Notes under the pieces: model-generated
Told to the model about the DNA's origin: nothing
Databases searched by the model: none
The model's input: the letters and a program-made list of their open reading frames with translations, nothing else
Assembly: GCF_011045215.1 (NCBI RefSeq)
Contig: NZ_CP049201.1
DNA: 64,000 nt
From: Escherichia coli
GTDB lineage: Bacteria; Pseudomonadota; Gammaproteobacteria; Enterobacterales; Enterobacteriaceae
Direction: 5' to 3' (one strand)
Part shown: positions 48,088-49,032 of the stretch, piece after piece
Layout of the letters: every line of letters starts with the position of its first letter
Position numbering within the stretch: the stretch's first letter is position 1
Program-made: the position numbers and the translations under genes

Positions 48088-49032
48088 TCACAACCAGCCG
48101 ACGCTCTCTCGCCATTTATAATTAGTAACTTTATCATTTTCGCTTATTTTTTTAGATATAGAGCGCGGCTCTCTTCCTAGATACTCAGATATTTCTATCG
48201 GGGACAAATCAAAATCGACAAGCATGACTCTAAGTTTTTCCATTTCCTTTAAAGTCCAAGGCTTGCCATAATTTTCATAAAGAGATACCTTATGCTCCCT
48301 GATAGTTCGCTTTCTCTGAGTTTCACTTTCCCTCTGAAAAATCTCGCTTTTAAATTGTGAACGGAACTCTTTACAGAAGTTGTTATCAGTTTTTTTGTTA
48401 TATAGATTGCTAAAAATAAGCTGGGATGCCGGGTCTAAATCAGGTGTGTTAATAATGAAAACTTTGACCTTTTCCATATAGGGATATTCAATTTTACCCA
48501 ATATGCTTAATTGCTTTATATTAAAAAAACCTCTCAAATCAAAAGATTTAATGAGCTTTGATTGGATTACACTTTCAATCCTGCTTGCATTTGAATAACA
48601 GTACTTTGCCATTGGAAGGGCCCATACTACCAGTTGAGGAATATATTTTTCTAATGCAATGCTCTGCCAATCAGTATCAAAGGTTTGGCTTTTTGCTAGC
48701 ATGTTTTTCGGCAAATCAGAATACATTGTGGTAGATGCCCATATCTTATAATCATTCGCCAAGGCTTGATAGTATTTTGTGTGGTTATGAATTTTATAAG
48801 CTGACATGAAGCGATAAACGTCTTCGTCGTGACCAGCGTCGTAAATTGTTCGATTTCCTCTAAGATAACCGTCGTAATGTTCGGTTATCCTTCTACCTAC
48901 ATTACAACTTACCCCAACGTAAACCACACGACTGAAAAGTCCTTTATGGACAATAAGATAAACTCCGCTACAGCCAGATTTCCTGGCCTCTGATAGAGAA
49001 CCTAAAAATCTCCATTCCATAATTAAATCCAT
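48088..49032 (-). CDS. hypothetical protein with N-terminal GIY-YIG nuclease-like motif
   Basis: ORF track 314 aa; residues about 20-55 read GVYLIVHKGLFSRVVYVGVSCNVGRRITEHYDGYL, fitting GIY-(10-11)-YIG with downstream conserved Arg; gene and flanks look AT-rich by eye. Confidence 0.65.
   Translation of the reverse strand: MDLIMEWRFLGSLSEARKSGCSGVYLIVHKGLFSRVVYVGVSCNVGRRITEHYDGYLRGNRTIYDAGHDEDVYRFMSAYKIHNHTKYYQALANDYKIWASTTMYSDLPKNMLAKSQTFDTDWQSIALEKYIPQLVVWALPMAKYCYSNASRIESVIQSKLIKSFDLRGFFNIKQLSILGKIEYPYMEKVKVFIINTPDLDPASQLIFSNLYNKKTDNNFCKEFRSQFKSEIFQRESETQRKRTIREHKVSLYENYGKPWTLKEMEKLRVMLVDFDLSPIEISEYLGREPRSISKKISENDKVTNYKWRESVGWL

Follow-up and report, generated by a model that had tools for sequence, protein, structure and literature searches.

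A mobile GIY-YIG-Myb gene in an Escherichia coli tRNA-Ser island as a candidate single-gene defence nuclease

The window analysed here is a stretch of 64,000 nucleotides from Escherichia coli (contig NZ_CP049201.1, assembly GCF_011045215.1). Its open reading frame (ORF) list includes a 314-amino-acid (aa) frame of 945 nt with an ATG start (48088-49032, minus strand), whose product combines a GIY-YIG nuclease domain at its N-terminus with a C-terminal Myb-type repeat. We read the gene as a predicted self-contained, two-module DNA endonuclease, whose role, on balance, is most likely defence by a single gene against phages or other invading DNA. The assignments of fold and motifs, their conservation, the autonomy and mobility of the gene, and its company among defence genes could all be established. 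Near-invariant catalytic residues, a match of the nuclease core to I-TevI and of the tail to c-Myb, gene autonomy, purifying selection, and defence neighbours argue for the proposed role, as does type IV precedent, since single-protein enzymes that join a GIY-YIG nuclease to a reader domain act as anti-phage type IV restriction enzymes (PMC12923530, PMC11037411). A preliminary description, made from the letters of the window, had noted a stand-alone ORF with a GIY-YIG-like signature; the ORF is real, and the quoted motifs are all present (G23-V24-Y25, V37-Y38-V39-G40-V41-S42, and R47-R48-I-T-E-H52).

Domain organization of the GIY-YIG-Myb protein

The coding sequence (48088-49032, minus strand) ends with a TGA stop codon at 48088-48090, and its product is identical to WP_032171640.1 of strain CFSAN061761, where the intact gene carries the PGAP label "hypothetical protein". 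A second in-frame ATG (M5, 49018-49020, reading MEWRFLG) corresponds to the start position of most homologues in the alignment and is the probable true start. Although the frame lies in AT-rich DNA, it is more than a chance ORF, because it has 72 homologues in Gammaproteobacteria and dN/dS values of 0.09 to 0.19 across genera (comparisons with unsaturated dS), which are indicative of strong purifying selection on the family gene.

The expanded GIY-YIG nuclease domain occupies about residues 5 to 210 (48403-49020, minus strand). In the AlphaFold2 model of the protein (pLDDT 91.4, pTM 0.82; low only at residues 171 to 180), viewed together with the alignment, the GIY and YIG motifs are located on adjacent β-strands, G23-V-Y25 (β1) on strand 23-30 and Y38-V-G40 (β2) on strand 34-42. 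These are followed by a helix bearing R48 and H52, a family-specific insert of ~90 residues (about 58 to 133) preceding the catalytic Glu, β3 (residues 134 to 140), a helix with E153 and Q157 (residues 146 to 164), and a W/I177-L-G179-K-x-E182 motif. E153 is assigned as the catalytic Glu by its position in the predicted fold, on the helix directly after β3. The predicted catalytic residues span 48574-48960 on the minus strand (Y25, 48958-48960; Y38, 48919-48921; R48, 48889-48891; H52, 48877-48879; E153, 48574-48576). Their spacing, Y-x12-Y-x9-R-x3-H, agrees in the HMM alignment with Y6/Y17/R27/H31 of I-TevI (numbering from the literature), with the Arg after YIG and the His four residues further on (R48 and H52) aligned to I-TevI R27 and H31.

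Conservation was assessed in two alignments, A1 for the close family (the ~310-aa subfamily) and A2 for the distant N-domain family at 21 to 35% identity. V24, Y25, Y38, V39, G40, R48, H52, E153, Q157, and N171 are invariant in A1, and G23 is conserved in at least 90% of its members. In A2, Y38, G40, E153, and G179 are invariant, and G23, Y25, R48, H52, and Q157 are at least 90% conserved.

Profile matches of the single sequence (Pfam, NCBIfam, PADLOC, PHROGs) are marginal, with E values of 0.0006 to 0.02 and confined to the motif region. The Pfam GIY-YIG model gives a nonsignificant E value of 0.017 over model positions 2 to 40 of 78; it aligns only over its first half because the catalytic Glu lies ~100 residues past H52, beyond the insert. 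TIGR01453 (group I intron endonuclease), the only NCBIfam signal, scores 15.1 bits against a cut-off of 56.05 over model positions 2 to 42 only, and the best PHROG match (E = 6e-4) covers the motif region only; the protein has no PHROG family. At the family level, 15/25 close members and 10/35 distant ones match Pfam GIY-YIG at E <= 1e-3 (best, 1.8e-7). The best match of the A2 profile in the Protein Data Bank (PDB) is the I-TevI catalytic domain (1mk0, E = 8.8e-4), in which Y17-V-G, R27, and H31 are aligned to Y38-V-G, R48, and H52; UvrC comes next and is also among the structural matches. Searches of PDB sequences by phmmer and with the full-length family profile returned chance antibody matches only. 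Every significant Foldseek neighbour in AFDB50 is an uncharacterised "GIY-YIG domain-containing protein". The GIY-YIG assignment is thus marginal from the single sequence and solid at the family level, where profile and structural tests concur. The preliminary description, which had named the lack of any GIY-YIG profile hit as grounds for giving up the assignment, is borne out in this respect: family-level profiles and structural neighbours identify a GIY-YIG nuclease-type protein, although the match of the sequence on its own is not significant.

The same description had left the C-terminal two-thirds uncharacterised, which needs correction: the nuclease domain extends to about residue 210, with E153 far downstream of the motifs, and is followed by a helical linker and a Myb/SANT repeat in the last ~60 residues. 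The linker (residues 218 to 251; 48280-48381, minus strand; pLDDT about 94) contains one long charged helix (228 to 251), and its Q226 and R234 are invariant in A1. The tail is a single Myb/SANT-type three-helix repeat (residues 256 to 314; 48091-48267, minus strand) with invariant W259, E265, L267, R268, R287, and W307. A tail-only profile matches c-Myb with E = 1.4e-6 and repeat R3 with 4.8e-4, in an alignment spanning all three helices; at E <= 0.1, Pfam Myb families are matched by 8/27 tails and GcrA by 5/27. The tail has the hallmarks of a Myb repeat, namely a three-helix bundle of ~50 residues, a first helix of the form W-x2-3-E-(D/E)-x2-L, and an R-x4-I-x3 recognition-helix pattern.

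Many relatives are proteins of 200 to 230 aa that match residues 5 to 210 only and thus have no Myb tail, and one protein, P0099 (515 aa), has the same nuclease module with DUF5677 in place of Myb; the nuclease module therefore pairs with alternative C-terminal modules. P0133 (471 aa) is made up almost wholly of this Myb/GcrA-like repeat, present in at least six tandem copies, and P0074 (451 aa) has an N-terminal extension of ~127 aa. Judged by their predicted domains, these three proteins appear to show modular shuffling around the nuclease core.

Distribution, mobility, and genomic company

A word-indexed search yielded the 72 homologues of about 310 aa in Enterobacterales, Aeromonas, Vibrio/Photobacterium, Pseudoalteromonas, Thalassotalea, and one Undibacterium, and when 1.84 billion cluster representatives were searched exhaustively, no more than 62 clusters came up at E <= 1e-3. 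Among complete E. coli genomes the gene is patchy (288/5,426 carriers, 5%) and almost always single-copy; 286 of the 288 copies are full-length and at least 99% identical, and those checked directly are intact. Disruption of the ORF in related islands, which the preliminary description had held would count against it, is therefore not what the carriers display. The only clearly disrupted copy noticed among them is an allele split by IS903B in E. coli strain 300444 (L002:6189-8199). The gene is also present on 4/72,556 plasmids, and tblastn found it in 0/50,697 phage genomes.

The gene is markedly poorer in GC (36.4%; GC3, 34.6%) than Ag43 (57.4%), the GTPase gene (58.1%), hsdM (53.0%), and the window as a whole (49.8%), and the segment around it (47912-49494) has 37.9% GC, so that the AT-richness seen earlier by eye is upheld by computation. 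Family genes keep a GC content of 33 to 41% irrespective of host, for example 35% within an Aeromonas locus of 55.5% GC. The segment belongs to an island inserted at tRNA-Ser(GGA) (35428-35515) and forms an AT-rich slot for cargo, with the GTPase gene on one side and the genes proximal to the restriction-modification (RM) operon on the other. The location between the Ag43/GTPase block and the RM operon given in the preliminary description was confirmed in the near-identical annotated genome CFSAN061761 (locus L001), in which the order is CbtA/CbeA, YeeS/T, antirestriction, Ag43, GTPase, the ORF, a small HTH-like gene, hsdM-hsdS-darT-darG-hsdR, and M48 peptidase. The site between the GTPase gene and hsdM is a variable cargo slot, because sibling tRNA-Ser islands hold other genes there: an OLD-family ATP-dependent nuclease in one (L026:459-2156; PADLOC Old, E = 1.6e-32), and in another (L025) hypothetical proteins of 172 aa (3453-3971) and 398 aa (4108-5304) with an interrupting IS2. 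The latter two proteins, for which PADLOC gave no match at E <= 1e-5, may be further defence candidates.

Only 57 genomes share the island context of the window. A 1.2-kb unit (48027-49236, minus strand), delimited by megablast and local BLAST and made up of the gene and its flanks (61 nt on the 3' side, 204 nt on the 5' side), is found again at 99.3% identity in two further E. coli contexts (three in all). One is the early region of a lambdoid prophage at rspB, which holds most E. coli copies (L016, E. coli AR24.2b); in the other (L017) the gene lies between IS1 copies beside a 1,167-aa NACHT protein. The copies in these two contexts are intact, with 1 and 5 amino-acid differences. A perfect hairpin with a 10-bp stem and a 6-nt loop, read directly from the sequence (inverted repeat I7; 48026-48051, minus strand), starts 36 nt past the stop codon; it has no T-run, is a probable transcript end, and coincides with the 3' edge of the mobile unit. 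At the DNA level, the Brenneria and Salmonella copies (81 to 82%) are homologous over the gene and hairpin only (48012-49065 for Brenneria). Apart from the hairpin, no terminal repeats or attC-like sites were found around the E. coli unit, and scanning for promoters revealed no sigma-70 consensus on the coding strand.

In Vibrio parahaemolyticus, a 61%-identical homologue is a one-gene integron cassette at three array positions with differing neighbours (L008, L009, L010/L011). All three arrays have the cassette in the same sequence, which begins at G|TTAGGC, 19 nt ahead of the ATG, takes in the gene with its own attC, and ends at GCGGCG|TTAG; the flanks diverge exactly at these bounds. A single promoterless ORF, its own attC, and G|TTRRRY core-site bounds thus characterise the Vibrio homologue and not the E. 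coli copy. No recurrent partner gene was found across about 10 contexts. A 43-aa ORF within the 1.2-kb unit (49096-49227, minus strand) was considered as a partner or immunity gene and rejected, because the Brenneria/Salmonella DNA homology ends at 49065 and no more than 19 nt precede the ATG in the Vibrio cassette; none of the Brenneria, Salmonella, and Vibrio copies conserves the frame. Further upstream lies a 102-aa ORF (49495-49803, minus strand), part of which is annotated in related genomes as an 84-aa hypothetical protein (WP_154670580.1). The gene therefore stands alone, as had been supposed, and the suspected separate acquisition is supported by its AT-rich composition, the recurrence of the unit elsewhere, and the different cargo of sibling islands in the same slot.

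The neighbours of the gene and its homologues are repeatedly defence genes, beginning in the window itself with the type I RM operon and its embedded DarTG pair. In the rspB prophage, a full-length homologue of PD-T7-1 (E = 7e-157; L016:13554-14903), one of the systems reported in PMC9519451, is adjacent, with a truncated HTH regulator gene between, which suggests that this early region is a defence hotspot. The NACHT protein (L017:6216-9719), bracketed with the homologue by IS1 copies, has no PADLOC match at E <= 1e-5. AbiH neighbours the Aeromonas homologue, RES and HNH genes the Undibacterium one, and a further context is an integrative and conjugative element (ICE) with ArdC. In Salmonella enterica (L018:1-2350), the homologue lies on a P4-type-integrase island that also encodes a Thoeris pair (ThsA-Macro, ThsB-TIR) and another TIR protein; the immediate neighbours of the homologue are two proteins of 603 and 525 aa without a PADLOC match. 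In Thalassotalea hakodatensis (L005:1242-7961), the genes directly upstream are that of a BrxR-type regulator and a block of four (269, 991, 468, and 180 aa), of which the 180-aa product matches MksE. The block looks Wadjet/Mks-like, with no PADLOC match for the 991-aa protein.

Functional interpretation and related systems

In the mechanism that we favour, a single Myb repeat (256-314), joined by a long helix to the expanded GIY-YIG catalytic domain (about 5 to 210), would anchor the protein on particular DNA, recognised by its sequence or by a base modification, and the tethered one-metal GIY-YIG site would nick or cut nearby, as in anchor-and-tether GIY-YIG enzymes. Islands, prophages, plasmids, and integrons would carry the gene as defence cargo. 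Neither a methyltransferase nor an immunity gene travels in the unit, and the lone integron cassette is no exception; the host genome must therefore be spared some other way. The target may be absent from host DNA, following the type IV-like, modification-dependent logic of PD-T4-3/CMoRE or of the winged-helix (wH)-GIY-YIG enzymes; alternatively, tight control of expression and activity may protect the host. A bolder proposal, which we put forward only tentatively, is that the Myb/GcrA-like repeat might be a reader that guides the expanded GIY-YIG nuclease to foreign DNA in an unnamed single-gene immune family, possibly through base modification or methylation state rather than plain sequence; the known prokaryotic sensor domains of type IV-like restriction would then gain a Myb repeat.

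Several points weigh against a defence nuclease. The Asn usual at the metal site has no clear equivalent, N171 being invariant in the ~310-aa subfamily only and not in the wider N-domain family, and a Foldseek search of the PDB with the whole model gave no significant match. The PADLOC scan matched no family beyond a motif-level match to PDC-S14 (E = 0.0075). The defence co-location is evidence of association from about ten contexts. Both the target specificity of the Myb repeat and any modification dependence are unreadable from sequence, and the searched literature contains no mention of the three E. coli accessions.

Much of the evidence above also bears on two other roles for a mobile nuclease gene. 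A free-standing homing endonuclease, a selfish gene whose product cleaves genomes without the gene at a specific site so that repair copies it in, would account for a gene-sized unit that has moved between contexts, and both the closest solved relative by sequence (the homing endonuclease I-TevI) and the only NCBIfam signal ("group I intron endonuclease") point that way. However, the family has neither phage copies nor a PHROG family; no common target or flanking homology unites the tRNA-Ser island, lambdoid prophage, IS1-flanked NACHT locus, ICE, and integron arrays; and the Vibrio copy was moved by attC recombination rather than by its own cut. Nor do the low dN/dS and near-universal integrity resemble the decay cycle of homing genes. 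The DNA-binding module here is a Myb repeat, whereas homing enzymes of the I-TevI type are known for NUMOD-type modules. We consider the homing-endonuclease-like selfish element raised in the preliminary description unlikely, given the missing phage copies, the lack of a common insertion target, and the strong purifying selection that the substitution rates imply. We regard as similarly improbable that the gene serves the mobile elements that carry it, either as a nuclease against competing elements or as a replication, recombination, or exclusion factor. It always lies on mobile or variable DNA (P4-type-integrase islands, the ICE with ArdC, prophage, plasmids, integrons), and a predicted DNA-binding repeat fused to a nuclease would suit targeting of a rival's origin or another cis site, for which the origin-directed nuclease of ICP1 offers a precedent and a comparison (PMC8263062). 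Yet the carriers are unrelated and share no replication or transfer machinery, unlike what an element-specific function would lead one to expect, and an integron cassette has no element to serve. In practice such a role overlaps with defence, and the two cannot be separated by sequence alone.

Less probable still is a DNA-repair or regulatory protein, be it a transcription factor of the Myb type whose nuclease fold is vestigial or a nickase that acts in repair as UvrC/Cho do. Myb/GcrA-type domains are usually found in transcription factors, and UvrC is among the structural matches; however, a catalytic set that is invariant or at least 90% conserved down to 21 to 35% identity argues for retained catalysis, many relatives lack any Myb tail, and the patchy 5% distribution in E. 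coli, the foreign AT-rich composition, and the cassette and prophage locations misfit a housekeeping role.

One of the closest known systems is PD-T4-3/CMoRE, a single-protein GIY-YIG type IV restriction enzyme of E. coli with demonstrated anti-phage activity (PMC12923530). Both come without a methyltransferase and are sporadic in E. coli and relatives. Membership was nevertheless rejected. PD-T4-3/CMoRE is defined by a GIYxY-YIG motif with a third Tyr two residues past the GIY Tyr (PMC12923530). The motif here reads G-V-Y25-L-I27, position 27 being I, L, F, V, or T across the family, and the protein further differs in its ~90-residue insert and in having a C-terminal Myb repeat rather than the modification-sensing domain of CMoRE. 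At E <= 1, PADLOC, whose library holds sibling PD-T7 models, gave no match except PDC-S14, and no PDB sequence match to CMoRE was found. The wH-GIY-YIG enzymes Ahi29725I and Apa233I are m6A-dependent type IV restriction enzymes with an N-terminal winged-helix reader and a demonstrated preference for Gm6ATC (PMC11037411). They likewise combine a small HTH-type reader and a GIY-YIG nuclease in one polypeptide with no cognate methyltransferase, but their domain order is opposite, their reader is a winged helix and not a Myb repeat, and no sequence relationship was detected.

I-TevI and I-BmoI share the anchor-and-tether logic of nuclease, linker, and DNA-binding module, and among proteins of solved structure none matches the catalytic core better by sequence than I-TevI. 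They differ from the present gene, which is found outside phages and introns, has no conserved target locus, appears to be under strong purifying selection, uses another DNA-binding module, and has its Glu displaced by about 100 residues. The type II GIY-YIG enzymes R.Eco29kI, R.Cfr42I, and R.Hpy188I are accompanied by a cognate methyltransferase and rely on elaborations within the nuclease domain for DNA recognition, whereas no methyltransferase travels with this gene. PDC-S14, the only PADLOC family with any signal, is likewise a single-gene candidate of similar length (301-position profile); membership was rejected because the match (13 bits) covers only residues 12 to 53, the GIY/YIG region. 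The Ssn site-specific single-stranded DNA nucleases were also rejected, being single-domain proteins of 94 aa.

The superfamily call is not new, since NCBI labels many members "GIY-YIG nuclease family protein". Three features appear undescribed in the searched literature: the architecture, in which an expanded GIY-YIG domain with its ~90-residue insert is combined with a long helix and a Myb repeat; the ability of the family to stand alone as a single-gene cassette; and its consistent placement among defence systems. In particular, literature searches found nothing on a GIY-YIG and Myb combination, and the integron-defence preprint does not mention a GIY-YIG cassette. Judged by these predicted features, the family is a reasonable candidate for a new single-gene defence family. 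It is overlooked by current classifiers, with PGAP mostly reporting "hypothetical protein" and PADLOC having no family for it. A defence role, if true, would enlarge the immune repertoire of E. coli by a nuclease family that is compact (<1 kb) and self-sufficient, and would be a first instance in which a Myb-type repeat targets a bacterial restriction-like enzyme; if it is not confirmed, the gene would be one more uncharacterised accessory nuclease on mobile DNA. The system is tractable, because the gene is short and intact, its native promoter region is available, natural variants exist with and without the Myb tail, and the catalytic residues are obvious. For enzyme engineering, too, there could be interest in a tethered GIY-YIG nickase whose small reader looks programmable.

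The adjacent restriction-modification block

The RM block spans 50310-59651 and consists of hsdM (50310-52748), hsdS (52742-54088), darT (about 54101-54757), darG (about 54754-55821), hsdR (about 55840-58935), and an M48 peptidase gene (about 58935-59651); coordinates beyond hsdS were transferred from locus L001, which is 99.5% identical. The DNA ADP-ribosyltransferase toxin-antitoxin pair DarT/DarG is embedded between hsdS and hsdR of this type I operon, with the M48 metallopeptidase gene after it, and the RM-DarTG arrangement recurs in sibling islands L002, L025, and L026. Within hsdS (41% GC), ~440 nt (53506-53947) do not align to islands L001 and L002, which are otherwise 97 to 99% identical. 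The divergent segment is probably a swapped target-recognition domain, which would give the RM system of the window strain a different specificity.

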